The position numbers and the translations under genes were made by a program. A stretch of 64,000 nt of DNA from Candidatus Nomurabacteria bacterium (GTDB taxonomy: Bacteria > Patescibacteriota > Minisyncoccia > Phycocordibacterales > UBA9973): assembly GCA_943350875.1 (NCBI GenBank), contig CALRAL010000003.1, positions 25,174-89,173 of the forward strand, in the 5' to 3' direction. The first letter of the stretch is position 1, and each line of letters starts with the position of its first letter. Under the pieces are notes generated by a model. It was not told the origin of the DNA and did not search any database. It worked only from the letters and a program-made list of their open reading frames with translations. Below, piece by piece: positions 39,711-63,971 of this stretch.

Positions 39711-42700
39711 AGAAAATGTAAAAAATAATAAATCAGAAGTAGCTCTCAGGGAGGAGAGGGTTTTGGAATTTTGGGAGCAAAATAAAATATTTGAAAAAGT
39801 TTCAAAAAAGGTAGCGAAGAAGGGTGACTATGTATTTTATGACGGTCCGCCGACGGCCAACGGCATGCCGGGGCTACACCATGTGGAGCCACAATCTTTC
39901 AAGGATTTAATTCCTCGATACAAAACTATGCGAGGGTATAATGTCTTGCGTAAAGCGGGCTGGGATACACACGGGCTTCCAGTAGAGCTTCAAGTAGAAA
40001 AAGCGCTTGGGCTAAAATCTAAAAAAGATATTGAAAAATACGGAGTAGAACTTTTTAATCAGAAATGCAAAGAAAGTGTTTGGCAATATAAAGCAGAATG
40101 GATGAAAATGCGTACTCGCATGGGTTTCTGGACTGATCTGGAGAATGCATACGTAACTTATACGAATAATTATATTGAAGCCTTGTGGGGAGTAGTGCAA
40201 AAGGCAGATGAGAGAGGATTCTTGTATAAAGATTTCAAGATCTTGCCTTGGTGCCCTCGCTGTGGGACAGCTCTCTCTAGCCATGAGCTCAATCAGCCTG
40301 GGGCATACAAAGATGTAAAAGATCTGTCTGTTTATGTGAAATTTAAAATTATTGGTGGCAATGATGCTTTTGCGGGGTCGCTGTCTCCGTCTGTTGACGG
40401 AGCGCTGCCTCTCGGCTCGTCAGCCTGCGAGACACCCCGACAAAAGCACATTGCCACCAATTTTTACATTCTTGCTTGGACAACAACACCTTGGACTTTG
40501 CCGGGGAATGTGGCTTTGGCAGTGGGGAATGATATTGATTACGTAAAAGTGAAATTTGGTGGGGAGATTTTGATTTTAGCAGAGGCTAGACTTTCTGTTT
40601 TGGGTGGCGAATATGAAATTTTGGAAAAATTGAAAGGCAAAGATTTAATTGGTTTAGAATATGAACCACTTTTTCCATATTTGTCCGCCCAAGGCGGATC
40701 CGCCTCTGGCGGAAAAGATTTTAGTGAAAGTATAAAAAATGCTTTTAAAATTTATCCAGCAGACTTTGTGACGACCACAGACGGCACAGGAGTGGTGCAT
40801 ACAGCTGTGATGTATGGAGTGGATGATTTTGAGCTTGGAACTAAATTAAATTTACCGAAATATCATCTCGTAAATGAAGAAGGTAAATTTATAAAAGGTA
40901 CAGGATTCTTGGAGGGGCGATATGTTAAGGAAGCTGACGAGAATGGCAAGCCGACACTCGCTGTGGACATCATTGATGACTTAACCAAGCGTGGACTTTT
41001 GTTTAAAAAAGAAAATCACTTGCACAGCTATCCACATTGTTGGCGTTGTGATACACCACTTATTTATTACGCTCGGATGTCTTGGTATTTTAAGATGAGT
41101 GCGCTACGTAGCCAATTAATGGCTGGAAATGAAAAGATACATTGGGAGCCAGAACATATCAAACACGGACGTTTTGGTGAGTGGCTTGATGGTATAAAAG
41201 ACTGGGCCATTTCTCGGGACAGATATTGGGGTACACCGATACCAGTCTGGCAGAAAAAAGATGGCACATATAAAACTATCGGCTCACTTTCAGAACTAAA
41301 AAAATATACTAAAAAGTCAGGTAATAAGTATTTTGTCATGCGACATGGGGAAGCAGAAAATAATATGGGAGAATTATATAAAGTTGATCCGACTCAAAGT
41401 TTTAATCTTACTGAAAAAGGGTGTCAACAGGTTTTAGAAAATATTAAAAATTTTAAAGAAAAAGTAGATGTTATTATTTCTTCCCCATTTGAACGAACAA
41501 GAGAAACTACAAAAATAGTTTGTGAATTTTTAGGTTTTCCGTTAGATAAAGTTATTTATGATGATAGAGTGCAAGAGTGGGAAGTAAGCTCTATGTTTAA
41601 TGGTAAGACACGTAAAGAGATGAAACAATATTATGATAATGATTATATGTATGCTCCACACGAAAGTCTTGCTGATGCAGAAAGTTTTATCCATGTTGTA
41701 AAAAGAACTGGGGATTTCCTTTATGACATAGAATCTAAATATAAAGATAAAACTATTTTACTTGTTAGCCATGCTGGGGCAGGCAGGGCTATGACGTTTG
41801 TCTCGAATGGAGCTACTTTTACTGATTTACCAAATAGACCAGATATAACCAAGATGCTAGATAATGCAGAAATCAAAAAACTTGATTTCGTGCCACTTCC
41901 TCACAATCAAAATTATGAACTTGATTTTCATAAACCATATATTGATGAAATAATTTTAGAAGAAAACGGAGAACAAATGTCTCGCACACCGGAGGTGATG
42001 GATGTGTGGTTTGATTCAGGGGCTATGCCTTATGCACAGAGTCATGTGTTAGGTACTCCGATGGACTTCTCTCCAGCCAAGGCAGACTACATATCTGAAG
42101 CGATAGATCAGACTCGTGGATGGTTCTATACTTTGCATGCAGTTATAAATTTGGTAAATAATAAATCAAGTAATGCTTTTAAAAATGTTATTTGTCTCGG
42201 GCATATTTTGGATGCGAATGGGCAGAAAATGTCTAAATCAAAAGGCAATGTAGTGGACCCATGGATGATGTTTGATAAATACGGGGCGGACACCCTCCGC
42301 TTATGGATGTATTCTGTGAATCAGCCAGGGGAGTCAAAGAACTTTGACGAGAAAAATGTTTTGGAATTAAATAGACAAGTTTTTGGCTTGCTTTATAATA
42401 TTGTGGCTTTTTATGAGCTTTATCGGGATAAAGATTTAGAAATTATACAAGGACAGTCCTTAAGAGAGTTTCCCCAAGGACTGTCCTTTAAAAATATTTT
42501 AGATATTTGGATTCTTGCTAGATTAAACGAGTTGATAGAACTCACTACTAAAAATCTAGATAGTTTTAAACTTTTAGAGCCGACTCGAGCTATGAAAGAT
42601 TTTATAAATGATCTCTCTACATGGTATCTGCGTCGTTCTAGAGATAGATTAAAAGATGAAGATAAAAATGCAAAACTTACACTGTATTTTGTATTAAAAA

Positions 42701-43347
42701 ATCTGGCAAAACTTATGGCACCATTTGCTCCCTTTTCTGCGGAAGATATCTGGCAGAAATTGAAAAATGAGGAAGATGTAGAAAGTGTGCATTTGGTAGA
42801 TTGGCCAAAAGTGTCAAAGGGCATCTTTGACATGTTTAGCAAAAAAGAGGAGAAAGTCTTGAAAAATATGCAAATTGTGCGTGATATTGTTTCTCTTGGG
42901 CTTGAAGCGAGGCAGAAAGCGGGGATAAAAGTCCGTCAACCGCTCGCTACGCTCAAGTGTAAAGTAGAAAGTGGAAAGTTGTCGAGTGAATACTTGGAAC
43001 TTATTAAAGACGAGTTGAACGTAAAAGAAGTATTATTAGAGCCTCGAGCCTCGAACCTAGAAACTAATGTAGAACTCGATACAAGAATAACTCCAGAATT
43101 AAAATCTGAAGGAGATTATAGGGAGCTTGTGCGAGCAATACAGGATATGAGGAAAAAGATGGGGCTGACTCCGAGTGATGTGGTGTCTTTCTCCTTTGAC
43201 ACAAATGAAGAAGGAAAAAAGTTAATCCAGAATTTTGAAAAGGAACTAAAAAAAGTAATTCTTGCTTCAGAAATAAAATTCATGGCAAATGATGGCGACC
43301 CAATCGTTATAGATGAACTAATATTTAAAATAAAAGTGGTAAAATAA
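39682..43347 (+). CDS. ileS: Isoleucine--tRNA ligase with an inserted histidine-phosphatase (PGAM-like) domain and two short in-frame palindromic-element insertions
   Basis: 1221 aa with HVEPQ (HIGH-like), TTTPWTLPGN, HKPYIDE, KMSKSKGN and the anticodon-binding domain. The phosphatase insertion is bounded by FVMRHGEAENN...SSPFERTRET...LLVSHAG at about 41300-41925. Confidence 0.9.
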   Translation: MSIRKNYMNEENVKNNKSEVALREERVLEFWEQNKIFEKVSKKVAKKGDYVFYDGPPTANGMPGLHHVEPQSFKDLIPRYKTMRGYNVLRKAGWDTHGLPVELQVEKALGLKSKKDIEKYGVELFNQKCKESVWQYKAEWMKMRTRMGFWTDLENAYVTYTNNYIEALWGVVQKADERGFLYKDFKILPWCPRCGTALSSHELNQPGAYKDVKDLSVYVKFKIIGGNDAFAGSLSPSVDGALPLGSSACETPRQKHIATNFYILAWTTTPWTLPGNVALAVGNDIDYVKVKFGGEILILAEARLSVLGGEYEILEKLKGKDLIGLEYEPLFPYLSAQGGSASGGKDFSESIKNAFKIYPADFVTTTDGTGVVHTAVMYGVDDFELGTKLNLPKYHLVNEEGKFIKGTGFLEGRYVKEADENGKPTLAVDIIDDLTKRGLLFKKENHLHSYPHCWRCDTPLIYYARMSWYFKMSALRSQLMAGNEKIHWEPEHIKHGRFGEWLDGIKDWAISRDRYWGTPIPVWQKKDGTYKTIGSLSELKKYTKKSGNKYFVMRHGEAENNMGELYKVDPTQSFNLTEKGCQQVLENIKNFKEKVDVIISSPFERTRETTKIVCEFLGFPLDKVIYDDRVQEWEVSSMFNGKTRKEMKQYYDNDYMYAPHESLADAESFIHVVKRTGDFLYDIESKYKDKTILLVSHAGAGRAMTFVSNGATFTDLPNRPDITKMLDNAEIKKLDFVPLPHNQNYELDFHKPYIDEIILEENGEQMSRTPEVMDVWFDSGAMPYAQSHVLGTPMDFSPAKADYISEAIDQTRGWFYTLHAVINLVNNKSSNAFKNVICLGHILDANGQKMSKSKGNVVDPWMMFDKYGADTLRLWMYSVNQPGESKNFDEKNVLELNRQVFGLLYNIVAFYELYRDKDLEIIQGQSLREFPQGLSFKNILDIWILARLNELIELTTKNLDSFKLLEPTRAMKDFINDLSTWYLRRSRDRLKDEDKNAKLTLYFVLKNLAKLMAPFAPFSAEDIWQKLKNEEDVESVHLVDWPKVSKGIFDMFSKKEEKVLKNMQIVRDIVSLGLEARQKAGIKVRQPLATLKCKVESGKLSSEYLELIKDELNVKEVLLEPRASNLETNVELDTRITPELKSEGDYRELVRAIQDMRKKMGLTPSDVVSFSFDTNEEGKKLIQNFEKELKKVILASEIKFMANDGDPIVIDELIFKIKVVK
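40351..40460. repeat. MITE-like 110-bp GC-rich element with perfect 13-bp terminal inverted repeats (ATTGGTGGCAATG / CATTGCCACCAAT), in-frame in ileS just upstream of TTTPWTLP
   Basis: The terminal and nested inverted repeats (CTCCGTC/GACGGAG) are visible directly. It encodes IGGNDAFAGSLSPSVDGALPLGSSACETPRQKHIATN. Confidence 0.7.
40685..40717. repeat. Family-4 palindromic element (CCGCCCAAGGCGGATCCGCCTCTGGCGGAAAAG), in-frame in ileS
   Basis: It shares GGATCCGCCTTGGGCGGAAAA with the copies at 57605-57628 and 62428-62451 and encodes SAQGGSASGGKD. Confidence 0.7.
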
Positions 43348-43351
43348 AAGT

Positions 43352-43915
43352 ATGAAAAAGGTATTTATGATACATGGTTTTGAGGGAGAACCAAATGGCG
43401 GTTGGAGGCCTTGGCTGATGGGTGAATTAGCAAAGAAGGATATTTATGCGTGTGCCTTACCTATGCCCACTCCAGATAAGCCAGAGAAAAATGAATGGAT
43501 AAAAGTTGTCTCTGATTCTGTTAGAGTCCCAACTGAAGAAATATTTCTAATTGGCCATTCTCTCGGTGTGCCAACTATTCTAAGATATTTAGAAACTTTG
43601 CCAGAAGAAACAAAAATCGGTGGGGCTATACTTATAGCTGGTCCAGCTTTTGTAATAAATAAGTCTGGGTATGAAAAAGTAAACGTTTTTTTAAAAGAGC
43701 CATTTGATTTTGGGCATATAAAAAATGCTTGTAAAAAATTTGCCATAATTCATGGAGATAATGATACAGCTGTTCTATTTTCTGATGCCGAATATTTAGC
43801 AAAAAATCTTTCTTGTAGTTTAATTTCTATAAAAAATGGTAAACATTTAGCTGGTCACGATGGTTTTTATGAACTCCCAGAAGCATTAGAAGAAATTTTA
43901 AAAATGGTAAAATAA
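43352..43915 (+). CDS. RBBP9/YdeN-family alpha/beta serine hydrolase
   Basis: 187 aa with the GHSLG nucleophile elbow and small esterase architecture. Confidence 0.55.
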   Translation: MKKVFMIHGFEGEPNGGWRPWLMGELAKKDIYACALPMPTPDKPEKNEWIKVVSDSVRVPTEEIFLIGHSLGVPTILRYLETLPEETKIGGAILIAGPAFVINKSGYEKVNVFLKEPFDFGHIKNACKKFAIIHGDNDTAVLFSDAEYLAKNLSCSLISIKNGKHLAGHDGFYELPEALEEILKMVK

Positions 43916-43919
43916 TGGT

Positions 43920-44423
43920 ATGGAAAGAAAATTAATTTGTGGAGATAAATTTGTTTTTGGTCACGGGACTATATCATTACCAGTTTCGTTTGAAAATGTT
44001 CCAAATGAGCTAGTATTTGAGGGTAATAATCTTTTGATAAATGATTTTTTACATGTGAGTTTGGTATGTATAGGTAAAATAATTGAAAAATATAATGTTA
44101 AGATTCCTGATTTTGAAAATAAAATAATAGAAGATTTTTGTGAGTTTTCTAATGAAAATAGTGTTGAACCTGTAATTTATAATAATGATTATAAATTAGC
44201 TGAGAAAGATGAAAAGAAAACTATAGTTGTGATGTGCAAGGTTCCTAACCTGAATAAATTTTTTGAATTGATAAATAAAAAATATGGATTAAATGTAGAA
44301 TATCCTCCTACACATGTGACTTTGTACAAACAGCCTGGTAAACTTGGTATATTCTTAACTAATATGGAAGATATAAAAAATTTTACTAAGCCTATTACAA
44401 ATCCAATAGGCCATTTGTTGTAA
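43920..44423 (+). CDS. Hypothetical protein, possibly a 2H phosphoesterase (LigT/ThpR-like)
   Basis: 167 aa with two H-x-[ST]-L motifs (HVSL, HVTL) about 90 aa apart. Confidence 0.3.
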   Translation: MERKLICGDKFVFGHGTISLPVSFENVPNELVFEGNNLLINDFLHVSLVCIGKIIEKYNVKIPDFENKIIEDFCEFSNENSVEPVIYNNDYKLAEKDEKKTIVVMCKVPNLNKFFELINKKYGLNVEYPPTHVTLYKQPGKLGIFLTNMEDIKNFTKPITNPIGHLL

Positions 44424-44427
44424 TCTA

Positions 44428-45051
44428 ATGCATCATATACACCACACAGAGGGGATAATATTAGGGAGTAGGAATTTTGGAGAGACGGGGAAATATTATT
44501 CCATTTTCACTCGTGATTTGGGCTTGGTATATGCTAGCGCGCAGGGAGTACGCAAGATGTCCTCCAAACTCCGTTTTGTCCTTTCAGATTATTCTCATAT
44601 AAAAGTGGATTTAGTAAAAGGCAAAGACCTCTGGCGAGTGACGAGCGCTTCAAAGACAGGGAGTCTTGAAGACATCTCAAAAGATAAAGAGAATTTTGTA
44701 GTTTTTGTCAGTATTTTAAATCTATTGAAAAGATTATTAGCTGGGCAAGAAGCAAATGAAACTTTATTTACAGATTTGGTAAAAGGTTTTAATTTTTTAG
44801 AAAAAGTTGGGCAAAAAGAACCTGCCCGCAATGCTTTCAGTATAGCTGATGCAGGCGGGGATAATTTAAGGAATATAGAAATAATAATAGTTTTACGAAT
44901 GTTGAATAATCTGGGATACATAGGAGCCGGAGAAACATCAGAGAATATAATAAAATCTCCATTTGAAGAGAATTTGGTGTTTGAAGTATCAAAGAATAGG
45001 TCTAAAGTTTTAGAGCAGATAAACAAGGCCTTAAAAGAGACTCATTTGTAA
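44428..45051 (+). CDS. recO: DNA repair protein RecO, compact, with an in-frame family-1 insertion
   Basis: RecO N-terminal OB-fold pattern EGIILGSRNFGETGKYYSIFTRDLGLVYASAQGVRK. The insertion at 44821-44860 encodes EPARNAFSIADAGGD. Confidence 0.65.
   Translation: MHHIHHTEGIILGSRNFGETGKYYSIFTRDLGLVYASAQGVRKMSSKLRFVLSDYSHIKVDLVKGKDLWRVTSASKTGSLEDISKDKENFVVFVSILNLLKRLLAGQEANETLFTDLVKGFNFLEKVGQKEPARNAFSIADAGGDNLRNIEIIIVLRMLNNLGYIGAGETSENIIKSPFEENLVFEVSKNRSKVLEQINKALKETHL
44821..44860. repeat. Family-1 palindromic element, in the reverse-complement orientation relative to the nusA copies, in-frame in recO
   Basis: CCTGCCCGCAATGCTTTCAGTATAGCTGATGCAGGCGGGG. Confidence 0.75.
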
Positions 45052-45107
45052 TGTGTTTGCCCCGTAAGAAATTTCTAAAATTTCGTTCGGGGTGGTATAA
45101 TTAAAGG

Positions 45108-47033: not shown

Positions 47034-47036
47034 AAT

Positions 47037-52091: not shown

Positions 52092-53607
52092 TTTTTATAT
52101 TACCACTACTTTGCCTTATGTAAATGCTCCATTGCATTTAGGACACGCTACGGAGATAATACGTGCAGATACTATAGCTCGATTTAAAAAAATACAAGGT
52201 TTCGATGTGTTTTTTAATACTGGAACAGATGAACATGGGCAAAAAATTTATGAATCTGCAGAAAAGGCTGGTAAGGGAGTAAAAGAATATGTTGATTATT
52301 ATGCGGATTTATACAAGAGAACTTTAGAGAGGTTTGGTGTATTGTCAGATGTGCATTATATCCGGACGACAGATGAAAATCATACAAAAGCCGCAAAAGA
52401 ATTTTGGGCAAGATGTAAAGACAAGGGTTTTATATACAAAAAGAATTACCAGGCAAAGTATTGTGTTGGTTGCGAGGAAGAGAAAACTGAAAGTGAACTG
52501 GTTGATGGCAAATGCCCTGAACATGATAGGGTTCCGGATTTAATAAACGAAGAGAACTACTTTTTTAAATTTAGTGCTTTTACAGATAAATTAGAGAATT
52601 TCTATAAAGAAAATTCAGATTTTATCGTTCCTAATTATAGGATGAATGAGATGCGTGAGTTCATAAAACATGGACTCAATGATTTTAGTATTTCTCGCTT
52701 AAAATCAAAGATGTCTTGGGGTATAGATGTGCCGGGAGATGAAGATCATGTCATGTATGTCTGGTTTGATGCATTAACAAATTATATTTCTACATTAGGA
52801 TGGCCGGATAAAACTCCCCTCCTTATGGAGGAGGGGGTTGGGGGTGGTAATTCAAAAAATCACCACCTCGCCCTAAAGGGCTCTCCTCCTCAACAAGGAG
52901 GAGAGGAATCTCTATTTTCAAAGTACTGGATAAATGGTAATCCAACACAATATTGTGGTAAAAATAATACTCGTTTTCAAGGTCTTATGTGGCAGGCAAT
53001 GCTCTTGGCAGTAGATTTGCCATTAACACATCAGATTATCGTTGATGGTTTTATTTTAGGAGAAGGAGGTATAAAAATGTCTAAGACTCTTGGCAACACA
53101 ATAGATCCACTAGATTTAATACAAGAATATGGGACCGATGGACTCCGATATTTCGTATTACGAGATTTTCATTCTTTTGAGGATACCGCGGTTTCAAAAG
53201 ATAGGCTTAAAGAATCATATAATGCAAATCTGGCGAATGGGCTAGGGAATCTGACTAGTCGCATTTTGACTTTATCTGAGAAATATTTAGATAATGGAAT
53301 AAAAGAAACGAAATTTTCTATACCACAAGTAAATGATTTCTTAAATACTTTTGACATACAGCTTGCAATGAAAGTTATTTTTGATTTGATAAACGATTTG
53401 GATAAACAAATACAGAAAACAGAACCGTTCAAAGTTATAAAAGTGAATGAAGAAGAAGGAAAGAAATTAATTAAAAGTCATGTAAAGCAACTCCTTACCA
53501 TCGCGAAATCTTTAGCTCCATTTTTGCCTGAGACCTCAGAAAAAATAGTAGAACTTATTAAACAAAATAAAAAACCAGAAAAGCCCCTATTTTTAAGGAA
53601 AGAATAA
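52039..53607 (+). CDS. metG: Methionine--tRNA ligase with an in-frame family-2 GC-rich element insertion
   Basis: LHLGHA (HIGH) and KMSKT motifs. The insertion at 52813-52915 encodes DKTPLLMEEGVGGGNSKNHHLALKGSPPQQGGEESLF. Confidence 0.9.
   Translation: MMLKSIKVLLEQKMKKNSFYITTTLPYVNAPLHLGHATEIIRADTIARFKKIQGFDVFFNTGTDEHGQKIYESAEKAGKGVKEYVDYYADLYKRTLERFGVLSDVHYIRTTDENHTKAAKEFWARCKDKGFIYKKNYQAKYCVGCEEEKTESELVDGKCPEHDRVPDLINEENYFFKFSAFTDKLENFYKENSDFIVPNYRMNEMREFIKHGLNDFSISRLKSKMSWGIDVPGDEDHVMYVWFDALTNYISTLGWPDKTPLLMEEGVGGGNSKNHHLALKGSPPQQGGEESLFSKYWINGNPTQYCGKNNTRFQGLMWQAMLLAVDLPLTHQIIVDGFILGEGGIKMSKTLGNTIDPLDLIQEYGTDGLRYFVLRDFHSFEDTAVSKDRLKESYNANLANGLGNLTSRILTLSEKYLDNGIKETKFSIPQVNDFLNTFDIQLAMKVIFDLINDLDKQIQKTEPFKVIKVNEEEGKKLIKSHVKQLLTIAKSLAPFLPETSEKIVELIKQNKKPEKPLFLRKE
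52813..52915. repeat. Family-2 composite GC-rich hairpin element (CCCCTCC..GGAGGGG, GGTGGTAATT..AATCACCACC, GCCCTAAAGGGC, CTCCTCC..GGAGGAG), in-frame in metG
   Basis: Collinear with the intergenic copy at 60509-60655 and with the ftsK copy at 62891-62975. All three are read in frame. Confidence 0.8.
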
Positions 53608-53611
53608 ATTA

Positions 53612-53636
53612 CACAGGGTTCCCCTGTGTAATTTAT
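53612..53636. repeat. REP-like 24-bp palindrome TTACACAGGGTTCCCCTGTGTAAT, copy 1
   Basis: Identical palindromes occur at 54228-54252 and 54941-54965, flanking the RAYT gene. Confidence 0.8.
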
Positions 53637-54202: not shown

Positions 54203-54227
54203 CTTTAAATTATATCACAACGAAGGT

Positions 54228-54252
54228 TATACACAGGGTTCCCCTGTGTAAT
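54228..54252. repeat. REP-like palindrome, copy 2, at the 5' flank of the RAYT gene
   Basis: ACACAGGGTTCCCCTGTGTAAT. Confidence 0.8.
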
Positions 54253-54267
54253 GTGTGGTATATTACA

Positions 54268-54966
54268 GTAATGGAAAGAAAAATACCTTTTGTGAAAGGT
54301 GAATACTATCATATTTATAATCGTGGCGTAGAAAAGAGAATTATATTTAAGACAGATTTTGATTATAAAAGATTTATTCTTTTGTTGCATGTTTTGAATA
54401 CAGACAAAAATCTTAAAATAAGGGATTTACTCCGGTCTAGTTCTTTTAATGAATTGTTAAAAATAAAAAATGATAATCCTATTGTGGCGATTGGATCATA
54501 CTGCCTGATGCCAAATCATTTCCATCTACTTATTACTCCTTTGGTGGAGGGAGGTATTTCAAAATTTATGTTGAAATTAGAAACTGCGTATTCTATGTAT
54601 TTTAATGGAAAAAATGAACGAAGTGGTGCTTTATTTCAAGGTGTGTTTAAATCGCAACATCTAGACAATGATGAGTATTTAAGATACATATATTCTTATA
54701 TACACTTAAATCCAGCAAAATTAAAAGATAAAAATTGGAAAGAGAATAGACCCAAAGATTCTAGATCTTTAAAAGAATTTATTGTGAGTTATAAATATTC
54801 TAGTATTGGAGAATATATTAATAATAACTTTACTATAGTAAATATTTCAGTTTTTCCTGATTATAGAGAGTTATATAAATCTAATAAGGAATTTTTCAAG
54901 ATTATGATTGATGATTGGTTGAATTATAAGGAGATTACAACAATTACACAGGGGAACCCTGTGTAA
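54268..54966 (+). CDS. REP-associated tyrosine transposase (RAYT; IS200/IS605 TnpA-like HUH Y1 transposase)
   Basis: YHIYNRGVEKRIIF, the HUH motif LMPNHFHLLI and Tyr-containing YIYSYIHLNPAK. I placed the start at 54268 (MERKIPFVKGEYY), whereas the ORF track begins at 54190. It is flanked by identical REP hairpins. Confidence 0.7.
   Translation, partial: VMERKIPFVKGEYYHIYNRGVEKRIIFKTDFDYKRFILLLHVLNTDKNLKIRDLLRSSSFNELLKIKNDNPIVAIGSYCLMPNHFHLLITPLVEGGISKFMLKLETAYSMYFNGKNERSGALFQGVFKSQHLDNDEYLRYIYSYIHLNPAKLKDKNWKENRPKDSRSLKEFIVSYKYSSIGEYINNNFTIVNISVFPDYRELYKSNKEFFKIMIDDWLNYKEITTITQGNPV
54941..54965. repeat. REP-like palindrome, copy 3, in the reverse-complement orientation, at the 3' end of the RAYT gene
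   Basis: ATTACACAGGGGAACCCTGTGTAAT overlaps the last RAYT codons. Confidence 0.8.
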
Positions 54967-54977
54967 TTTAAGAGATT

Positions 54978-56087: not shown

Positions 56088-56095
56088 GATTTAAA

Positions 56096-56190
56096 TTCTC
56101 CTCTTGAGGAGTACCTGCAGGGGGAGGTGGATGAATTCTTCCACCTCGTCTTTTGATTACAAAAGCCACCCCTCAAGAGGGGAATATGAA
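56096..56190. repeat. Cluster of GC-rich hairpins (CTCCTCTTGAGGAG; GAGGTGG..CCACCTC; CCCCTCAAGAGGGG) upstream of rpsF
   Basis: Same polypurine/polypyrimidine stem style as family 2. Confidence 0.5.
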
Positions 56191-56231
56191 AACAGTGGAC
56201 TTTTCCAAAACTTTTTGCTATTATCAATCCA

Positions 56232-56753: not shown

Positions 56754-56775
56754 TTATCATTTAACCAATCAAATT

Positions 56776-57231
56776 ATGTATTTAAACAAAGCAATTGTAA
56801 TAGGGAACTTAACTCGTGATCCAGAATTAAAGTCTTTGCCTTCTGGTATCAAAGTATGTTCTTTTTCTTTAGCTACAAATCGTGTTTGGAAAGATAAGAA
56901 TGGTGCTCGCCAAGAATCTGCTGATTATCACAATGTGGTAGTATTTGGACGCCAAGCCGAGACAGTCGCTCAGTATATGAAAAAGGGAAGCTCAATGATG
57001 GTAGAAGGCAGGATGCAGACTAGGAGCTGGGATGATAAAAACAGTGGTGAGAAGAAATACCGCACCGAGATAGTAGCAGAGAAAACACAGTTTGGTCCAA
57101 AAAGTGCTGGTTCTACAGGTGGATCATCGATGTCATCTCCTAAAACACCGACAGTAGATGTGGCAGGTGGGGAAGTAGATACCATAGAATACCCAGAAGA
57201 GGACATTAACCCAGAAGATATACCATTTTAA
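56776..57231 (+). CDS. ssb: Single-stranded DNA-binding protein
   Basis: OB-fold N-terminus NKAIVIGNLTRDPEL, with an acidic C-terminal tip DIPF. Confidence 0.9.
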   Translation: MYLNKAIVIGNLTRDPELKSLPSGIKVCSFSLATNRVWKDKNGARQESADYHNVVVFGRQAETVAQYMKKGSSMMVEGRMQTRSWDDKNSGEKKYRTEIVAEKTQFGPKSAGSTGGSSMSSPKTPTVDVAGGEVDTIEYPEEDINPEDIPF

Positions 57232-57249
57232 TAAAATTTTAATAAATAT

Positions 57250-57450
57250 ATGAAACAAGATTATTTTTCAGCCAACAACATAAAACACATAGATTACAAA
57301 GATATTGAGATCTTAAGTAAATTCATCAACCCAAATGGCAAGATTTTAAGCCACAAGAAGACTGGGGTGACAGCTAAAAACCAGCGTCAACTCTCAGGAG
57401 CCATCAAAAACGCTCGTTTTATGGGCCTTTTGCCTTTCGTAGCGAAGTAG
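57250..57450 (+). CDS. rpsR: 30S ribosomal protein S18
   Basis: IDYKDIEILSKFI...RQLSGAIKNARFMGLLPF. Confidence 0.85.
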   Translation: MKQDYFSANNIKHIDYKDIEILSKFINPNGKILSHKKTGVTAKNQRQLSGAIKNARFMGLLPFVAK

Positions 57451-57456
57451 TTTAGT

Positions 57457-57491
57457 GTCAAAGTTGCTAGGCAAGACCTAGCAACTTTGAC
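57457..57491 (+). terminator. Rho-independent terminator with a perfect 15-bp stem (GTCAAAGTTGCTAGG-CAAGA-CCTAGCAACTTTGAC) plus T-rich tail
   Basis: Immediately 3' of rpsR. The core GCTAGGCAAGACCTAGC recurs at 37405 and, in variant form, at 38699 and 59830. Confidence 0.7.
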
Positions 57492-57527
57492 TTTATATGT
57501 TAATAACTTTGCCTTTACTTCTCGCGC

Positions 57528-57538
57528 GGGGGGGGGGG
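57528..57538. repeat. Homopolymeric G11 tract upstream of a surface-protein gene
   Basis: GGGGGGGGGGG sits in an AT-rich intergenic region about 95 bp upstream of the ATG at 57632. Confidence 0.8.
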
Positions 57539-57604
57539 TTATACTTACCTTATGCTTAAAAGGTGTATCTTTTTGAGCTTTAAAATTAACTTATTTCAGC
57601 CATA

Positions 57605-57628
57605 GGCTGATCCGCCTTGGGCGGAAAA
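57605..57628. repeat. Family-4 palindromic element (GGCTGATCCGCCTTGGGCGGAAAA) immediately upstream of the 57632 start codon
   Basis: Matches 62428-62451 in ftsK and 40685-40717 in ileS. Confidence 0.7.
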
Positions 57629-59770
57629 ATTATGAAAAAATATATAGGAATTTTGTTTGTTTTGAGTTTTTTGATTGCCTCACCGAGTTTTGTTTTCGCT
57701 GCTCAGGATGGAGATCTTGATCCAGCCGATGTCGGAGCGAGTTGTGCCGATATTACTCATGACTTGCGTTATAGGATGCGAGATACTGCTACTAATGATG
57801 ACATTGCTGTCTTGCAAGATTTCTTGAATAGTAATGGATATACGACTGTATCTCCAGCTGGATTCTTCGGAACTTCTACCTTGAAAGCGGTTAAAAAGTT
57901 TCAGTCTGCCAATGGTTTGCGTCAAACTGGTTTCGTTGGTCCTAAAACTCGTGCCAAAATAAAAGCGATTGATTGTGGAGATGTAATTGTTCCCCCTGTT
58001 GCCGGTGCTCCTTGTATTTCTATAAATAGTCCATTAGCTAATTCGCAAGTTGCTCTTCCTTTTACTGTGAGAGGTGTATTTAATGATGACAGAAGTGAAA
58101 GACCTACAGGGTGTTCAATGTGGAAATTCTTTGAAGGACAGGCTGGGACAGCTAAATTACATTACAAGAATAATGGCTCTTGGTTTTCTCTAGGTGGAGT
58201 AAAAGTTATTCCAGTTTCTGATTGGATGTCATCAGGACCAAAATCTTTTTCTGTGATTATGGATTTGAAGGGTGGTAGTGGTGTTGACGCCATGTATTCA
58301 TTCAAAGACGGTATGCCATTGGAGGTTGTATTTCAAGAAGAAGATCCTTCGGGCATGGGTCATGGTAAAGCTTTTACATTACCACTTGTATATAAATCTA
58401 CAGTCACTCCTCCTACCACCCCATCCATTACAGTCCTTTCTCCAAATGGAGGGGAGACATATACAGCGGGACAACAGATTATGGTGAAATGGAACAGTTC
58501 AAATATTACATATCCAGTTTCAATTTATCTAGATAAAGTACCTGTAGGATATATTCCATCTTTTAGTAATGTAATATCTAGAGTTACTTTAGTTTCTAGT
58601 ACACCTAATGATGGACAAGAACAAATTACATTACCAAATTCTTCTGATTGGTTTTCTGGTCAAAAGCAATATGCTGTGACTGTATCTCCAGTAGAGTCAT
58701 CAGGTCTTGATGTTGCTGATATTTCTAATAATTCATTTACAATCAACGCCCCATCTTCCACCAATCCTCCCGTTATTGATGGCGTCTCTGGACCTTCAAC
58801 ATTAAACACAGGTGCGACAGGTACTTGGACAGTCACAGCTCACGATTCAAATGCTGGTAATTTGTCATACTCTGTAGTCTGGGGTGATGAAGGTTCTAAG
58901 AGAGCTATGGCTTCTTCTACCACATCTCAAACAGCTACATTTACACATGTTTACAGTACTGCTGGGAATTATGTTCCTACCTTTACAGTCACAAACATGA
59001 CAACCAATCAGAGTGCTACTACTAGTTTGAGTGTAAATGTGACAGCTACAACTCCTTCTCTATCTGTAGTTTTGTCTAGAAATACAGCTTATATAAATCA
59101 GAGTTTCTATACTAACAGTACTCATAAAAAAATTGCTTCATTTACAATACAAGCTGGAGGTTCTCAAGGTGTTCATGTAAACAATTTTCAGATGGATTTT
59201 TCTGGATATAATCCAGGAAGTATTGCTCCTACAGGTATTTCTAACTTAGGCATATATTCAAATGGTGTTCAGCTTGGTTCAACTATTGCTACTGTCCTTA
59301 CTATCAATAATGTCCCAATGAACTTCAATATAGTTGCTGGCAATACTTCTGTTATTGATGTTTATGCTGATTTAGGATCTTCAGCTGGTTCCTTGATAGT
59401 ACCATTAAATGCAAGTGGAATTGGTCTCGTATCTGGAACTACTTTCTCTACCCAGACAATGAATGGTCAAACAATCACTGTGAAGATTCCAACCCCTCCT
59501 CAAATATTTGGTGTCTCTGGTCCTTCATCGTTAGGTCCAAATCAAATGGGAACTTGGACAGTATCATCTCATGATAATAATACTGGTACTTTGCAATATG
59601 CCGTAAATTGGGGTGAATCAGATCCAAATTATTATCCACAATCAACTTCTGTTTTTACTCATGCTTATAAAACTGTGGGGACATATACAGCTACATATAT
59701 TGTCACGAATACTGCAACAGGTCAGTACACACAAAAGACATTTAGTACAAAAATCAGTTTAATTAATTAA
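57617..59770 (+). CDS. Secreted cell-surface protein with a peptidoglycan-binding (PG_binding_1) domain and tandem PKD/Ig-like domains
   Basis: Signal peptide MKKYIGILFVLSFLIASPSFVFA, so the likely true start is 57632. The PG-binding motif is LQDFLNSNGYTTVSPAGFFGTSTLKAVKKFQSANGL. The repeated PKD-like blocks are TGTWTVTAHDSNAGNLSYSVVWGDEGS and MGTWTVSSHDNNTGTLQYAVNWGESD. Confidence 0.6.
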   Translation: MGGKIMKKYIGILFVLSFLIASPSFVFAAQDGDLDPADVGASCADITHDLRYRMRDTATNDDIAVLQDFLNSNGYTTVSPAGFFGTSTLKAVKKFQSANGLRQTGFVGPKTRAKIKAIDCGDVIVPPVAGAPCISINSPLANSQVALPFTVRGVFNDDRSERPTGCSMWKFFEGQAGTAKLHYKNNGSWFSLGGVKVIPVSDWMSSGPKSFSVIMDLKGGSGVDAMYSFKDGMPLEVVFQEEDPSGMGHGKAFTLPLVYKSTVTPPTTPSITVLSPNGGETYTAGQQIMVKWNSSNITYPVSIYLDKVPVGYIPSFSNVISRVTLVSSTPNDGQEQITLPNSSDWFSGQKQYAVTVSPVESSGLDVADISNNSFTINAPSSTNPPVIDGVSGPSTLNTGATGTWTVTAHDSNAGNLSYSVVWGDEGSKRAMASSTTSQTATFTHVYSTAGNYVPTFTVTNMTTNQSATTSLSVNVTATTPSLSVVLSRNTAYINQSFYTNSTHKKIASFTIQAGGSQGVHVNNFQMDFSGYNPGSIAPTGISNLGIYSNGVQLGSTIATVLTINNVPMNFNIVAGNTSVIDVYADLGSSAGSLIVPLNASGIGLVSGTTFSTQTMNGQTITVKIPTPPQIFGVSGPSSLGPNQMGTWTVSSHDNNTGTLQYAVNWGESDPNYYPQSTSVFTHAYKTVGTYTATYIVTNTATGQYTQKTFSTKISLIN

Positions 59771-59810
59771 ATATTATTAATATCAAGGACTACCCTTGAT
59801 ATTAATACAA

Positions 59811-59886
59811 AAATCCCTAAGGTTAGCCTAGGGATTTTGCGTTAGGTCTTGCCTAACGCACAAATACACAGGCGTTGCCTGTGTAT
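59811..59886 (+). terminator. Three consecutive GC-rich hairpins (CCCTAAGG..CCTAGGG; GCGTTAGGTCTTGCCTAACGC; GCACAAATACACAGGCGTTGCCTGTGTATTTGTGC) between the convergent PKD-protein gene and efp
   Basis: Stems seen directly. The third resembles the REP palindrome TACACAGG..CCTGTGTA. They are probably bidirectional terminators and REP-like elements. Confidence 0.55.
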
Positions 59887-59895
59887 TTGTGCTAA

Positions 59896-60474
59896 TTACA
59901 CTCGCTCCACATATTCTCCAGTTTCTGTGTTGATGCGGATAGTGTCGCCTTCGGCGACGAACATCGGAGCGTTGATAGTGGTGCCATTTTCAAGGGTTAT
60001 GACTTTTATTCCACCTTTGGATGTGTCTCCACGGACTGCAGGAGGAGCTTCTTTGACTTTGAATTCCATTTTGATAGGCAGATCCACACTGATATTCACT
60101 TCTTCGCCGTCATTGTCCCAGACTAGGACTGTGGTGTTGCTATTTTGTTTCAAGAATTTTGCTGCAGTACCGATGAGTGATGCGTCTAGTTTGAATCTGT
60201 TTGCTTTGTCATTTGGATCGCAGAACCAATATTCTCCACGGTTAGCGTATAAGAATGTGACTTCGCGTTTCTGTATATCTGCTTCATCGGCAGAGTCTGC
60301 GACGTGAAAAGTAGCAGGGAAGACCTTACCAGATATTAAGCTTTTTAATTTGACCTGATTTTGAGGCTTCCTTTGTTGGGTACGAGCGACATGCGACTCC
60401 ACCACCATGCATGGCTCATCATTATGAATTATAATTTTTTTTTCTCTGATTTCAGAGTATTGTAATTGAGACAT
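59896..60474 (-). CDS. efp: Elongation factor P
   Basis: 192 aa with the three-domain EF-P pattern. The loop sequence is divergent from the canonical KPGKG. Confidence 0.8.
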   Translation of the reverse strand: MSQLQYSEIREKKIIIHNDEPCMVVESHVARTQQRKPQNQVKLKSLISGKVFPATFHVADSADEADIQKREVTFLYANRGEYWFCDPNDKANRFKLDASLIGTAAKFLKQNSNTTVLVWDNDGEEVNISVDLPIKMEFKVKEAPPAVRGDTSKGGIKVITLENGTTINAPMFVAEGDTIRINTETGEYVERV

Positions 60475-60508
60475 GACTTTATACTAGCAGAAAAATTGTT
60501 TAAATCAA

Positions 60509-60655
60509 CCCCCTAAATCCCCCTTGTCAGGGGGACTTTCTATTTTTCCTCCCCTCCTTAATCAAGGAGGGGAATGAGGGGTGGTAATTAAGAAATTTAA
60601 TAAATCACCACCTCGCCCTAAAGGGCACTCCTCCTCCACAAGGAGGAGATGATCC
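60509..60655. repeat. Family-2 composite GC-rich hairpin element, intergenic copy between efp and recA
   Basis: Its modules are CCCCTTGTCAGGGGG; CCCCTCCTTAATCAAGGAGGGG; GGTGGTAATTAAG...ATCACCACC; GCCCTAAAGGGC; and CTCCTCCTCCACAAGGAGGAG. It is collinear with the metG in-frame copy. Confidence 0.8.
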
Positions 60656-60657
60656 AA

Positions 60658-61701
60658 TTATGCCTCCTCCACAAATTTCTTGCGGATTTCCTTTAATATT
60701 TCATTTGCAATTTTTGTATTCTCTTTCAAGAATGTGCGAGTGGAGTCATAGCCTACACCTAGTTTCATTTTTTCTTTTGATTCACCACTTGGCATATAAA
60801 AGTATGAATTCCCAGTTTTCTCTACTATTTTAAATTTCTCTCCGAGGGCTATTATTTCTCCTTCTTTAGAAATTCCTTCGTTGTAGATGATATCAAACTC
60901 TGTTTGTTTAAACGGCGCGGCGACTTTGTTCTTGACCACTTTTATACGAGTTCTAGAACCCACTATTTCCTCTCCTTTTTTGATTTGGGCAATTTTACGT
61001 ATATCTAGGCGAACTGAAGTGTAGAATTTGAGAGCTTTACCTCCTGGGGTAGTCTCTGGGTTACCAAACATCACTCCTATCTGCATGCGGATCTGGTTTA
61101 TGAATATGACAGCTGTTTTAGAATGAGAAACTATCGCTGTGAGCTTGCGGAGCGCTTGAGACATCAGACGGGCTTGTTTACCCACGTGATATGCTCCCAT
61201 ATCGCCTTCTATTTCATCTTTTGGGGTGAGTGCTGCTACAGAGTCCACGACTATCACATCCACTTTACCTGTACGCACAAGGCTGTCCACTATGTCGAGA
61301 GCTTGTTCACCTGTGTCTGGTTGAGAAATGAGCAAGTCATTTATATTTACTCCGAGCTTTTTTGTGTAATCAGGATCCATCGCATGTTCGGCATCTATGT
61401 ATGCACAAACCCCGCCGAGTTTTTGCGCCTCAGCTACTATATGGAGCGAGAGGGTAGTCTTGCCGGAGGACTCTGGCCCGAATATCTCAATTATTCTTCC
61501 ACGTGGTATGCCTCCGATGCCGAGCGCCATGTCGAGCCCTATCGAGCCAGTCGGTATCGCATTTATGTGCACTTTTGGAGTTTCACCTAGTTTCATTATT
61601 GAACCCTCGCCGAATTTTGCTTGAATGGCCTTTAATGTATCATCTAGCCCTGTTGCTCCCATTGATTTGTCTTCTTTCTGCTCTTTTTTCTTTTTCATCA
61701 T
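60658..61701 (-). CDS. recA: Recombinase RecA
   Basis: [10 protein letters not shown] Walker A and full-length RecA signature motifs. Confidence 0.95.
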
Positions 61702-61816
61702 AATCTTATCCTTCTTAGGATTACAGGATTTGCTTTTTTGAGCTGGTCTGGCTGGGATAGGGACCCAGAGAACCGAGGACCCGAAAAAAAGAAAAGCCTG
61801 TGATCCTAATTATTAA

Positions 61817-62167
61817 CTAATAAACTAATTTATAATTTTTTTCATCAACATTCCCAAATTTATCGCTTGCTTTTATATTTACCACATTATACCCCGAAAG
61901 TAGAGCTATCGTTTCCTTAAAATTTCCACTCTGATCTACTGATATTTCTCGACCATTCAAGTAGAGTTTGTTGGCATTTTTGGCATTTCCAGCAATATTC
62001 ATAATACTTTCAGTTATTTTTGTCCCATCTACTATATTTACGTCTCTTATTTTTACTCCTGTTATCAGATTTTGTGAACGGTAAATTCCATAGAATATTA
62101 TTATTAAGAAAAACACTGCTAGCCCCATCATTTTCAATATCCTTTTGTTAGTTGGTTCTGTACTCAT
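61817..62167 (-). CDS. Small membrane-anchored protein, possibly a FtsQ/POTRA-like division protein
   Basis: 116 aa with an N-terminal TM helix. It sits immediately downstream of ftsK on the same strand. This is a weak call. Confidence 0.25.
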   Translation of the reverse strand: MSTEPTNKRILKMMGLAVFFLIIIFYGIYRSQNLITGVKIRDVNIVDGTKITESIMNIAGNAKNANKLYLNGREISVDQSGNFKETIALLSGYNVVNIKASDKFGNVDEKNYKLVY

Positions 62168-62168
62168 T

Positions 62169-63971
62169 TTATTGCATTATATTATTTCCAGATTCATCGT
62201 GTTCTATTTTTTGTAATACTTCCCTTGGTTTTGCTCCATCGCCAGGGCCTATCACTTCGCGTTCTTCGAGTTGGTCCATGAGTCGGGCTGCTCTAGCGTA
62301 GCCCAGCTTTAATTTCCTTTGTAAATACGAAGTAGATGCCTTGCCAGCTTCTATGACACAAGCTCGAGCTTCTTCATACATTTCATCATCTGATTCATTA
62401 TTTTCATCTAAGTTTTCCCAGCCAAAGGCTGGTCCGCCTTGGGCGGAAAATATCGATTTGTCAGCTGAGATACTTCCGTTACTGAGTGATATCTCTTCTG
62501 TTATTTCATCTCGATATTTATCTGCCAAATACTTGACCACTTTCTTTACTTCATTTTCAGAAATAAAGGCAGACTGGAGTCTTTCTGGTTGAGCTTCTCC
62601 CGAAGAGTAGAGCATGTCTCCAGCTCCGAGGAGCTTTTCTGCTCCGCCGGTGTCAAGTATAGTGCGAGAATCTATTTGGGAAGACACTTTTAGAGCGATG
62701 CGGGCAGGGATGTTGGCCTTGATGAGTCCAGTAATGACGTTTACCTCTGGGCGTTGAGTGGAAAGTATGAGGTGTATGCCCACAGCTCGAGACATTTGAG
62801 CCAGGCGCACGATAGCGGACTCGAGCTCTCTAGGATAGGAGCTCATTATATCTGCCAATTCATCCAATATTATGACTATATATGGCAAACGATCACCACC
62901 CCCTGCTCCCTCCTCCACAAAGAGGGGGTCTGAGTTTCCCCGCCTCGATGAGGAGGGGACGGAAGGGGTGGTCTTTCCCCATACATTATTGTGATAACTT
63001 TCTATATCTCGTACTGATTCCGCTTCCAAGATGTCATAACGGCGATCCATTTCTTTGGCCGCCCATTTAAGGGCGAGTATTGCCTTTTTGGCTTCAGTTA
63101 TGACAGGGGTGAGTAAGTGAGGGATCTTGTTATAAAGGGTGAGTTCTACTCGTTTTGGATCTATCATTATTAATTTCAAATCATCTGGACTATTTCTGTA
63201 TAACAAGGATGTGATGATAGCGTGTATTGAGACAGATTTTCCAGAGCCAGTAGTTCCTGCGATGAGAACGTGTGGCATCTTGGCCAAGTTCCCAAAGCTG
63301 GCTCTGCCAGATATTCCACGCCCGAGCGCAATAGTGAGTGGTTTAGTAGAATTTTGGAATTTCTCATCGGAAAGGAGAGTAGCGAGGCCCACGGTTGATT
63401 TTACTTTATTTGGGATTTCGATACCTACGAGGGATTTGCCAGGAATTGGTGCTTCTATGCGGATAGGGTGTGCGGCTAGGGCTAGGGCGAGGTCACTTTG
63501 AAGTCCGACTATGCGGGAGAGTTTCACTCCTTCGGCTGGTTTTAGCGCATACCTCGTCACTGTGGGGCCAATGGTTATCTCATCCATCTCGACTTCGATA
63601 CCGAAGTTCTGTAAGGTACGTTTTATTATATTTGCATTTGCTTTTATGTCTCCAGTATTTGGTTTGCCTTGATCGCCTTCGAGGAGGGAGAGTGGGGGAG
63701 GTGTATAAGCTGAAAATAGTCCAGACTTTATTTTTTTAATCGGCATCTCATCTTCTTCCTCTGTTTTTTCTTCTTTTTTATTTTTTCCTACACCTAATGC
63801 TTTTTTAATTTTTTCTCCTGTTGTCTCATTTCCCTCCTCCCCTGACAAGGGGAGGAAAGAGGAGGGGTTATTTACCCCCTCTGCTTCCGGTATCTCCCCC
63901 GAGGCCGAGGGCGAAATGTATCCATTTTTTTTCTTCCAAATCATCCCCCACACTTTTTTCAAAAATGGCAT
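62169..63971 (-). CDS. ftsK: DNA translocase FtsK/SpoIIIE with three in-frame palindromic-element insertions
   Basis: Walker A GTTGSGKSVSI, the motor domain, and a C-terminal gamma winged-helix. Insertions lie at 62428-62451, 62891-62975 and 63826-63895. Confidence 0.9.
   Translation of the reverse strand: MPFLKKVWGMIWKKKNGYISPSASGEIPEAEGVNNPSSFLPLSGEEGNETTGEKIKKALGVGKNKKEEKTEEEDEMPIKKIKSGLFSAYTPPPLSLLEGDQGKPNTGDIKANANIIKRTLQNFGIEVEMDEITIGPTVTRYALKPAEGVKLSRIVGLQSDLALALAAHPIRIEAPIPGKSLVGIEIPNKVKSTVGLATLLSDEKFQNSTKPLTIALGRGISGRASFGNLAKMPHVLIAGTTGSGKSVSIHAIITSLLYRNSPDDLKLIMIDPKRVELTLYNKIPHLLTPVITEAKKAILALKWAAKEMDRRYDILEAESVRDIESYHNNVWGKTTPSVPSSSRRGNSDPLFVEEGAGGGDRLPYIVIILDELADIMSSYPRELESAIVRLAQMSRAVGIHLILSTQRPEVNVITGLIKANIPARIALKVSSQIDSRTILDTGGAEKLLGAGDMLYSSGEAQPERLQSAFISENEVKKVVKYLADKYRDEITEEISLSNGSISADKSIFSAQGGPAFGWENLDENNESDDEMYEEARACVIEAGKASTSYLQRKLKLGYARAARLMDQLEEREVIGPGDGAKPREVLQKIEHDESGNNIMQ
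62428..62451. repeat. Family-4 palindromic element, in-frame in ftsK
   Basis: GGCTGGTCCGCCTTGGGCGGAAAA encodes, on the minus strand, FSAQGGPAFGW. Confidence 0.7.
62891..62975. repeat. Family-2 GC-rich hairpin element, in-frame in ftsK
   Basis: ACCACCCC...GGGGTGGT outer stem with inner CCCTCC/GGAGGG stems. It encodes ...PLFVEEGAGGGD. Compare the metG insertion PLLMEEGVGGGN. Confidence 0.75.
63826..63895. repeat. Family-2-type GC-rich nested hairpin (CCCTCCTC-CCCTGACAAGGGG-AGGAAA-GAGGAGGG), in-frame near the ftsK 5' end
   Basis: Encodes NNPSSFLPLSGEEGNE. It shares the CCCCTGACAAGGGG module with 60524-60538. Confidence 0.65.

Follow-up and report, generated by a model that had tools for sequence, protein, structure and literature searches.

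The stretch of DNA considered here, called the window in the following, comprises 64,000 nucleotides (nt) of a Candidatus Nomurabacteria genome (assembly GCA_943350875.1, contig CALRAL010000003.1, positions 25,174 to 89,173) with a GC content of about 35%. It harbours, among others, argS for a 600-amino-acid arginyl-tRNA synthetase (ArgRS; 23781..25583, + strand; Pfam tRNA-synt_1d, DALR_1 and Arg_tRNA_synt_N), ileS for an isoleucyl-tRNA synthetase (IleRS) with an inserted His_Phos_1 domain according to Pfam (39682..43347, + strand; the database protein begins seven codons after the TTG proposed by the open reading frame finder), a gene for a secreted protein with PG_binding_1 and PKD domains (57632..59770, + strand; Pfam) and ftsK for a DNA translocase (62169..63971, - strand; Pfam FtsK_alpha, FtsK_SpoIIIE and FtsK_gamma; PDB 2iut with an E-value of 4e-119). 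Three of these genes contain, and the PKD gene directly follows, one copy each of a 30-nt repeated unit, here termed E, which is made up of two abutting 15-nt GC-rich hairpins whose stems comprise 6 bp and whose loops comprise 3 nt. One half reads TCCGCC-NNN-GGCGGA and lies beside YCAGCC-NNN-GGCTGR, and the whole is a two-fold pseudo-palindrome, the halves of which differ by C/A at stem position 3.

Copy 1 lies in argS (25038..25067, + strand) and consists of TCCGCC-CGA-GGCGGA and CCAGCC-TTG-GGCTGG, read in frame as SARGGPALGW (amino acids 420-429). Copy 2 in ileS (40684..40713, + strand) is a variant with two TCCGCC-type halves (TCCGCC-CAA-GGCGGA and TCCGCC-TCT-GGCGGA) and encodes SAQGGSASGG in frame. 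Copy 3 is intergenic, lies on the - strand (57596..57625), belongs to the TCAGCC...GGCTGA subtype, reads TCAGCC-ATA-GGCTGA and TCCGCC-TTG-GGCGGA on the + strand and is flanked by TT and AA. Copy 4 in ftsK (62418..62447, - strand) reads TCCGCC-CAA-GGCGGA and CCAGCC-TTT-GGCTGG on its own strand and encodes SAQGGPAFGW in frame (amino acids 509-518). The density is thus four copies per 64 kb.

An earlier note on this DNA had reported a repeat with three copies in ileS, in ftsK and in front of the PKD gene and had judged it too frequent for chance, which was borne out: the 21-mer GGATCCGCCTTGGGCGGAAAA matches with one or two mismatches at 40681-40701 (-), 40696-40716 (+), 57608-57628 (+) and 62430-62450 (+), and none of 100 dinucleotide-preserving shuffles gave a match. 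The three loci were correctly placed, but the copy in argS had been overlooked and the extents had to be corrected by repeat and hairpin scans to those given above. GGATCC, which had been counted as part of the consensus, arises where the two TCCGCC-type halves join in the ileS variant. TCCGCC-N3-GGCGGA occurs five times in the window compared with 0.05 expected matches, and all five lie at copies of E. As single-stranded DNA, each of the four copies is predicted to form two hairpins with -11.7 to -13.0 kcal/mol (z -4.2 to -5.0), and both minimum-free-energy structures and centroids for DNA and RNA consist of two 6-bp hairpins. The ileS copy is identical in independent assemblies of the same strain, which excludes an assembly artefact.

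The statement that the ileS and ftsK copies are in frame and encode SAQGG was confirmed (PLFPYL-SAQGGSASGG-KDF in IleRS and SIF-SAQGGPAFGW-ENL in FtsK), and the argS copy reads EKI-SARGGPALGW-KEV. All three coding copies in the window use one common frame relative to E, S-A-x-G-G-P/S-A-x-G-G/W. ArgRS orthologues from Candidatus Nomurabacteria and Paceibacterota are 566-580 amino acids long and 63-70% identical; E is absent from all 59 that were aligned, and its ten codons replace about five residues (KDREF). In the AlphaFold model of ArgRS (mean pLDDT 80), residues 420-429 form a turn between helices 404-421 and 431-453. The IleRS stretch is situated between YEPLFPYL and KNAFKIY, in a loop whose length varies, and E is absent from all 49 ileS orthologues examined. 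In FtsK, alignment to PDB 2iut and 2ius places the stretch in a low-complexity linker between the motor and gamma domains. The coding copies therefore occupy positions that tolerate extra residues, namely variable loops and linkers.

Two side observations concern these host proteins. The His_Phos_1 domain of IleRS (amino acids 551-718; window 41332-41835) is inserted between the catalytic and the anticodon-binding parts and is present in all of the 120 best homologues from Nomurabacteria and Paceibacterota, a few of which carry an HD domain in addition. The hosts of in-frame copies in the window and in other genomes (loci L007, L029, L027, L118, L014, L062, L020 and L119) appear, post hoc, rich in tRNA-handling enzymes, with ArgRS, IleRS, HisRS, ValRS, the CCA-adding enzyme, Tgt, MiaA and TsaD among them.

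Copy 3, rightly placed directly upstream of the start codon in the earlier note, ends 6 nt before the ATG at 57632, and the N-terminus of the encoded PG_binding_1/PKD protein, MKKYIGILFVLSFLIASPSFVFA, resembles a signal peptide as read from its residues. Upstream lie ssb, then a small rpsR-like open reading frame (ORF; 57251-57450) and then a strong, terminator-like 15-bp hairpin found by a terminator scan (57457..57491, + strand). This hairpin marks the end of the upstream transcription unit, and copy 3 is therefore located in the leader or promoter region of the PKD gene. The two hairpins of E dominate the predicted RNA fold of this leader, which as a whole is no more stable than shuffled sequences (z = -1.1). 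Shine-Dalgarno matches are almost absent from the start regions of the 44 genes in the window, and many of them carry a TATAAT-like box 5-12 nt ahead of the ATG, so that the organism appears to use leaderless or short-leader initiation. A comparison of the ribosome-binding-site context at 57605-57631, as had been proposed, is largely moot because the genes in the window hardly use Shine-Dalgarno sites. As for the effect on translation initiation that the earlier note had suggested, two stable hairpins ending at -7 could, judging from the predicted fold, hinder loading of the 30S subunit or stabilise the 5' end. In the same intergenic region, a run of ten G (CGCGCGGGGGGGGGGTT) at 57518-57537 upstream of copy 3 is unusual at 35% GC and could be prone to slippage.

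The earlier note had made its claim depend on further copies elsewhere, and many were found in other genomes. A scan of GTDB with one genome per species and the pattern CAGCC-N3-GGCTG-N-TCCGCC-N3-GGCGGA identified the exact stems in at least 120 stretches of species representatives from more than ten phyla, compared with a chance expectation estimated at about 0.07 (22 fixed bases and about 1.2e12 positions). Patescibacteria of many classes account for about 35 of the 80 matches listed by name; the others listed come from Ignavibacteria, Bacteroidota, Omnitrophota, Planctomycetota, Verrucomicrobiota, Bdellovibrionota, Gammaproteobacteria, Elusimicrobia, Lentisphaerae, Leptospira, Binatia and further groups, and the GC content of the stretches among the matches listed ranges from 31 to 66%. 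E is also present in 11 viral contigs of IMG/VR, mostly just upstream of genes and in several cases 15-30 nt before start codons. The copies stem from many independent projects, single-cell genomes included. No Rfam family overlaps E, either in the whole window at the gathering threshold or in 18 related loci, and no account of E or of the cassette described below was found in the full-text literature, a search that did not cover subscription journals.

Comparison of 142 copies revealed which parts of E are kept. The loops vary freely with some bias, being mostly AAA, AGA or CAA in the TCCGCC hairpin and TCT, TTT, TAT or TTG in the CAGCC hairpin. The flanks are conserved: before E, position -2 is T in 89% of the copies and position -1 is Y in 91%; after E, position +1 is R in 78% and position +2 is A in 75%. 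The subtype TCAGCC...GGCTGA (96 copies) is mostly intergenic, and the subtype CCAGCC...GGCTGG (44 copies) is the source of every in-frame copy read in the frame S-A-x-G-G-P-A-x-G-W, called A0. All coding copies in A0 are free of stops and end in GGCTGG; the other subtype would end in an in-frame TGA. This distribution is expected if the codons are translated and stops are purged. Although the genomes are mostly coding, 100 of 143 copies lie outside ORFs, at all distances from gene starts and ends, and 43 lie inside. Neither the coding strand that dominates locally nor GC skew predicts how the intergenic copies are oriented, and strand-specific insertion (single-strand, replication-linked) was rejected on this ground.

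The stems are maintained as pairs. Variants were detected by the left arm only, and both strands of each hairpin were counted. Of the single-arm substitutions, 74 are matched by a compensating change in the right arm, 15 are uncompensated and 20 are accompanied by a change elsewhere, whereas about 1 in 19 would be compensated by chance. The uncompensated changes comprise seven G-T pairs and eight true mismatches, and a constraint at the RNA level over one at the DNA level is thus unsupported because G-T pairs are not preferred. Pairing is also kept in variant stems (TGCGCC/GGCGCA, CCCGCC/GGCGGG, TGAGCC/GGCTCA, TCAGCT/AGCTGA and others) at the GIY-YIG nuclease loci treated below.

Evidence that E behaves as a discrete insertion came from its flanks. 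For 34 of 164 copies, an uninterrupted paralogue of the joined flanks (11+11 nt) was found within the same locus, many with zero to two mismatches and most inside an intact tRNA gene. Filled and empty sites differ by exactly the 30 nt of E, with neither duplication nor deletion. Examples of empty sites are GGAGTGGTTT joined to AACTGGCAC (L040), GGGTTC joined to GAATCCCACC (L028) and, in the anticodon loop of tRNA-Lys (L155, L160, L163 and L168), AGCTCCCTTTT joined to AAGGAGA. Within tRNA sequences, E is inserted in the D-loop, in the T-loop or in the loop or stem of the anticodon arm, that is, at hairpin tips containing T-Y followed by R-A with E between them. The tRNA copies that bear E are fragments or displaced copies. 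It was considered whether E might be a tRNA intron, but after in-silico excision ARAGORN mostly finds intact tRNAs beside E, and only the one in L040 spans it.

Some of these loci have peculiarities of their own. In L168 (1408-2035), L160 and L163, tandem 3' fragments of tRNA-Lys lie downstream of the intact tRNA-Lys behind the GIY-YIG gene, each with E between positions 36 and 37 of the anticodon loop, and look like relics of repeated events at one site. In L063 (from about 7078 downwards) and L084 (from about 4731 downwards), the tRNA after the GIY-YIG gene is apparently interrupted past the anticodon region, intron-like by eye. Group I introns have been reported in tRNA-Asn genes of Patescibacteria (PMC13011429) and may relate to these interruptions.

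All-against-all clustering of the ORFs within 2.5 kb of E in the 120 GTDB loci yielded a single family with members in more than five of them. It is a GIY-YIG protein with a length of about 80-90 amino acids, found in 15 loci. With a hidden Markov model (HMM), 19 GIY-YIG genes were detected in 132 loci (about 1.04 Mb from GTDB, viral contigs and the window), 14 of them within 110 nt of E. The E-linked nuclease is a bare GIY-YIG domain over the whole protein (Pfam E-values of 1e-16 to 1e-18) with no auxiliary domain, and matches the UPF0213 structures PDB 1zg2 (E-value 8e-8) and 1ywl (E-value 9e-5). These structures belong to the bacterial Slx1 lineage, a minimal form without auxiliary DNA-binding domain, and eukaryotic Slx1 is a structure-specific endonuclease (PMC1564403). 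The local arrangement is constant and that of a cassette: a 5' fragment of a tRNA, E in one of its loops, a few more tRNA bases, the GIY-YIG gene and a complete copy of the same tRNA, which often overlaps the stop codon of the nuclease gene.

An independent test started from 80 metagenome loci that were fetched by similarity to the GIY-YIG protein alone. Canonical E is present in 21 of them, a double hairpin of the 6-3-6 type in 46 and at least one hairpin of the family in 66, mostly 9-45 nt upstream of the GIY-YIG start codon. Of the 80 loci, 64 have a tRNA no more than 150 nt away, and an upstream duplicate of the 5' end of that tRNA, interrupted by the hairpins, was seen in 37 of 51. Homologues of the nuclease are annotated in several classes of Patescibacteria, many of them on very short contigs, as is expected for multi-copy elements.

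Taken together, E is a discrete, structured 30-nt insertion unit that is common to distant phyla and enriched outside genes. Within genes it persists only in frame, free of stops and at tolerant positions, and it accompanies, as the non-coding part, a GIY-YIG cassette housed in tRNA genes. We infer that the copies in the window are solo descendants of the E/GIY-YIG cassette system. The reading that we favour, and consider rather probable, is that the window holds four solo representatives of a family of miniature palindromic insertion elements that is widespread and constitutes the non-coding module of tRNA/GIY-YIG cassettes, whose spread is or once was driven by the nuclease. According to this proposal, E would enter DNA as a discrete unit of 30 nt, leave its target unduplicated and prefer sites between T-Y and R-A, a motif that is met at the apex of existing hairpins such as the D-, anticodon- and T-loops of tRNAs. 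Surviving genic copies would be translated as a short stretch rich in Ser, Ala, Gly and Pro in a surface loop or linker. The Slx1-like GIY-YIG nuclease, acting in trans or via break repair, may drive or have driven this spread. The copy before the PKD gene would be one more insertion, in a leader, with any effect on expression as a by-product, and we infer that it has no evolved function.

Several observations weigh against this proposal. A GIY-YIG gene stands beside only about 10% of the copies, and the association could mean that E is a target or a regulatory module of the cassette that the nuclease does not mobilise. The window contains neither a homologue detectable by tblastn or HMM nor a tRNA gene, and the adjoining 10 kb on its left (ENA ERZ27280321 k141_150968) likewise lack E, tRNA and GIY-YIG. 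With the window and these 10 kb as the sequence covered, a mobilising enzyme in this organism is hypothetical. The four copies have no empty site for comparison, the nearest orthologues being only 63-73% identical. The net gain from the ten codons is about five residues in ArgRS and two to five in IleRS, and a plain, precise 30-nt insertion therefore does not fit argS and ileS without an extra deletion or a loop that already varied in length. Translation of the coding copies is deduced from their frame. Coding copies use frame A0 in 16 cases but in no case the mirror frame B0, which is just as open, a bias that the proposal does not account for. Finally, two Parcubacteria carry E at the same site of the CCA-adding enzyme, with stems identical at 24 of 24 positions and flanks that have diverged at synonymous sites. 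Something keeps these stems intact: their structure may be under selection, they may evolve in concert with other copies, or E may have inserted more than once at one site. The shared copy could also indicate selection for a function.

One rival explanation is that E is an RNA structure that serves as a translation or stability module upstream of the GIY-YIG and PKD genes, by occluding the start, protecting the 5' end or providing a processing site, with the coding copies as tolerated extras. In the cassette, E would then be the translation or stability module of a toxic nuclease gene. The short distances to many GIY-YIG starts, to the PKD start and to several starts on viral contigs agree with this, as do the dominance of the E hairpins in the predicted leader fold, the compensatory changes and the conserved orthologous copy. 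We nevertheless regard this explanation as unlikely. E is a two-fold pseudo-palindrome whose intergenic copies have no preferred orientation and occur at any distance from either end of a gene; among the uncompensated changes, G-T pairs are no commoner than true mismatches, Rfam offers no match, and the PKD leader fold is unexceptional against shuffles. E also interrupts tRNA gene fragments at their loops and behaves as a discrete insertion.

The same insertion behaviour bears on the idea that E is a non-mobile DNA site bound or cut by a conserved protein, be it a recognition or landing site of the GIY-YIG enzyme, a recombination site or an uptake signal. Two-fold symmetry is what a dimeric binding site would have, the link with a nuclease without its own DNA-binding domain is tight, and the sequence is identical across phyla. 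However, the filled and empty paralogues show that E itself was inserted, and no role for binding is obvious within essential genes and tRNA fragments. Variable loops and co-varying stems fit a structure better than a fixed duplex sequence, and four copies per 64 kb is a low density, as known uptake sequences are denser. This idea therefore appears quite unlikely to us. That the copies are chance or convergent GC-rich palindromes, reflect a shared protein motif (SAxGGPAxGW) or arose by assembly or sequencing error has in its favour only that all sequences come from metagenome assemblies and that the coding copies share a peptide pattern. It is nonetheless extremely improbable, since shuffles gave no match, the DNA of E also occurs in non-coding regions and in other reading frames, identical copies were recovered from independent assemblies of the same strain, E is found in many independent projects including single-cell genomes, and copies lie in frame within conserved genes. 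Protein selection alone could not produce the palindromic pairing of the codons.

Among known elements, the double-hairpin elements (DHEs) resemble E in form. According to PMC10085805 and PMC2800124, which cite Paquin et al. 2000, they occur in mitochondria of Allomyces, other chytrids, Schizosaccharomyces octosporus and S. osmophilus. Their sequences differ little or not at all between species, which was read as horizontal spread, and they are reported not to be removed from transcripts. Both are short, GC-rich, composed of two adjacent stem-loops and dispersed in intergenic regions and genes, and the host genomes of DHEs are AT-rich like the window. Evidence of mobility is provided for E by the filled and empty paralogues. 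DHEs are organellar, 26-79 nt long and variable in sequence, whereas E is bacterial and also found on viral contigs, always measures 30 nt and has the same stems in more than ten phyla. The likeness is an analogy, and membership is not claimed. An Allomyces DHE is said to border a mobile insertion with an endonuclease ORF that duplicates a gene end, which would parallel the GIY-YIG/tRNA cassettes.

With regard to in-frame copies, E recalls the Rickettsia palindromic elements (RPEs), which were reportedly described by Ogata et al. in 2000. RPEs are restricted to Rickettsia, have a length of about 100-150 nt and are not known to be associated with a nuclease; they are translated at positions on the protein surface where function is not impaired. 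Both are in-frame and, in the case of E presumably, translated selfish DNA in function. E differs by its 30 nt, which falls outside the unit length of RPEs, by crossing phyla and by its host, a Nomurabacteria/Paceibacterota relative. RPEs are also mentioned in PMC10969869.

REP, BIME and REPIN sequences share with E that they are short GC-rich palindromes, often in inverted pairs and dispersed in large numbers, for which mobilisation in trans by a single dedicated enzyme is assumed. They are extragenic, species-specific and flank a Y1 (IS200/IS605-like) RAYT transposase gene. E, unlike these, is found in genes and tRNA copies, is common to many phyla and has a GIY-YIG neighbour. An assignment as REP/BIME was rejected as three of the four window copies and 43 of 143 overall lie within ORFs, so that E is not strictly extragenic, and one as a RAYT-linked REP as the clustering within 2.5 kb of E in 120 loci returned GIY-YIG as the only recurrent family and no RAYT. 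Further candidates were discarded likewise: a miniature inverted-repeat transposable element derived from an insertion sequence (IS), as filled and empty sites reveal no target duplication and no IS transposase recurs near E in the 120 loci; an intrinsic terminator, as E has T before and A after it on both strands and was not called in a scan of 57200-57700; and a spliced intron of group I/II or bulge-helix-bulge type, as copies are constrained by the reading frame, 30 nt is too short for self-splicing and there is no Rfam match.

On the side of the nuclease, phage T4 segB is a free-standing GIY-YIG gene in a tRNA gene cluster (PMC2330249). The E cassette is similar in having a small GIY-YIG gene among or within tRNA genes, and partial duplication of the target fits spread by break repair. 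SegB-type enzymes, however, have DNA-binding modules and no hairpin element, whereas the E-linked enzyme is minimal, Slx1-like (UPF0213) and accompanied by E.

The window contains further repeats and features. Additional short GC-rich repeat or hairpin families lie within coding genes, at 52849-52907 (metG), 16563-16608, 18574-18619, 2134-2172, 3091-3129 and 44799-44836. In argS, the repeat-overlapping segments 23988-24005, 24351-24374 and 25275-25304 have no counterpart in orthologues and map to loops that the model predicts with low confidence; ArgRS is about 25-30 amino acids longer than its relatives. A hairpin family of the form ACACAGGG-NNNN-CCCTGTGT with AT-rich flanks (53607-53635, 54227-54255, 54942-54970 and 59862-59890) has three of its four copies at or just past gene ends and looks like a shared bidirectional terminator. 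The non-coding region 36950-37500 harbours a tandem duplication of about 410 nt (36957-36993/37364-37400 and 37024-37081/37436-37493, 95-97% identical) with the hairpin motif CTACTTTACTNAACTAAAGTGTAG, which is partly found at 29586-29609 as well, and a truncated NYN-like ORF between the copies; no Rfam match was obtained for it. Cumulative GC skew climbs between about 4 and about 58 kb, beyond which it levels off or declines, and gene orientation changes from + to - near 59.8 kb, close to recA and ftsK, which could be a replication terminus or another strand-switch point.

Small palindromic repeats that are translated within genes are already known from Rickettsia and mitochondria. Unusual in the present case is the combination of a 30-nt element with identical stems in more than ten phyla and viral contigs, precise insertion into tRNA loops and essential genes, and a minimal nuclease of structure-specific type. 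The interest of the finding thus comes from a cross-phylum double-hairpin element tied to a GIY-YIG nuclease and tRNA genes, and not from the copy in a 5' untranslated region. As a tentative proposal, which we hold to be more doubtful than the reading favoured above, E and its minimal Slx1-like GIY-YIG nuclease may form an undescribed class of cross-phylum mobile elements with a 30-nt transposable or homing unit, possibly the smallest known. This unit would be inserted precisely and with no duplication where T-Y and R-A adjoin at the tips of DNA hairpins; the nuclease cassette would invade tRNA genes and carry a replacement tRNA segment, and solo E would provide essential proteins of Patescibacteria with short new peptide loops. 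E and similar elements can lead both gene prediction and tRNA detection astray and give rise to spurious "conserved motifs" in unrelated proteins. If the link between E and the nuclease is causal, it would provide a function for the widespread, uncharacterised UPF0213/YhbQ-like GIY-YIG family and would account for many of the breaks seen in metagenome-assembled genomes, both in tRNA gene copies and in the assemblies. It would also offer one route by which new loops come about in aminoacyl-tRNA synthetases and other core proteins of the ultra-small genomes of Patescibacteria.

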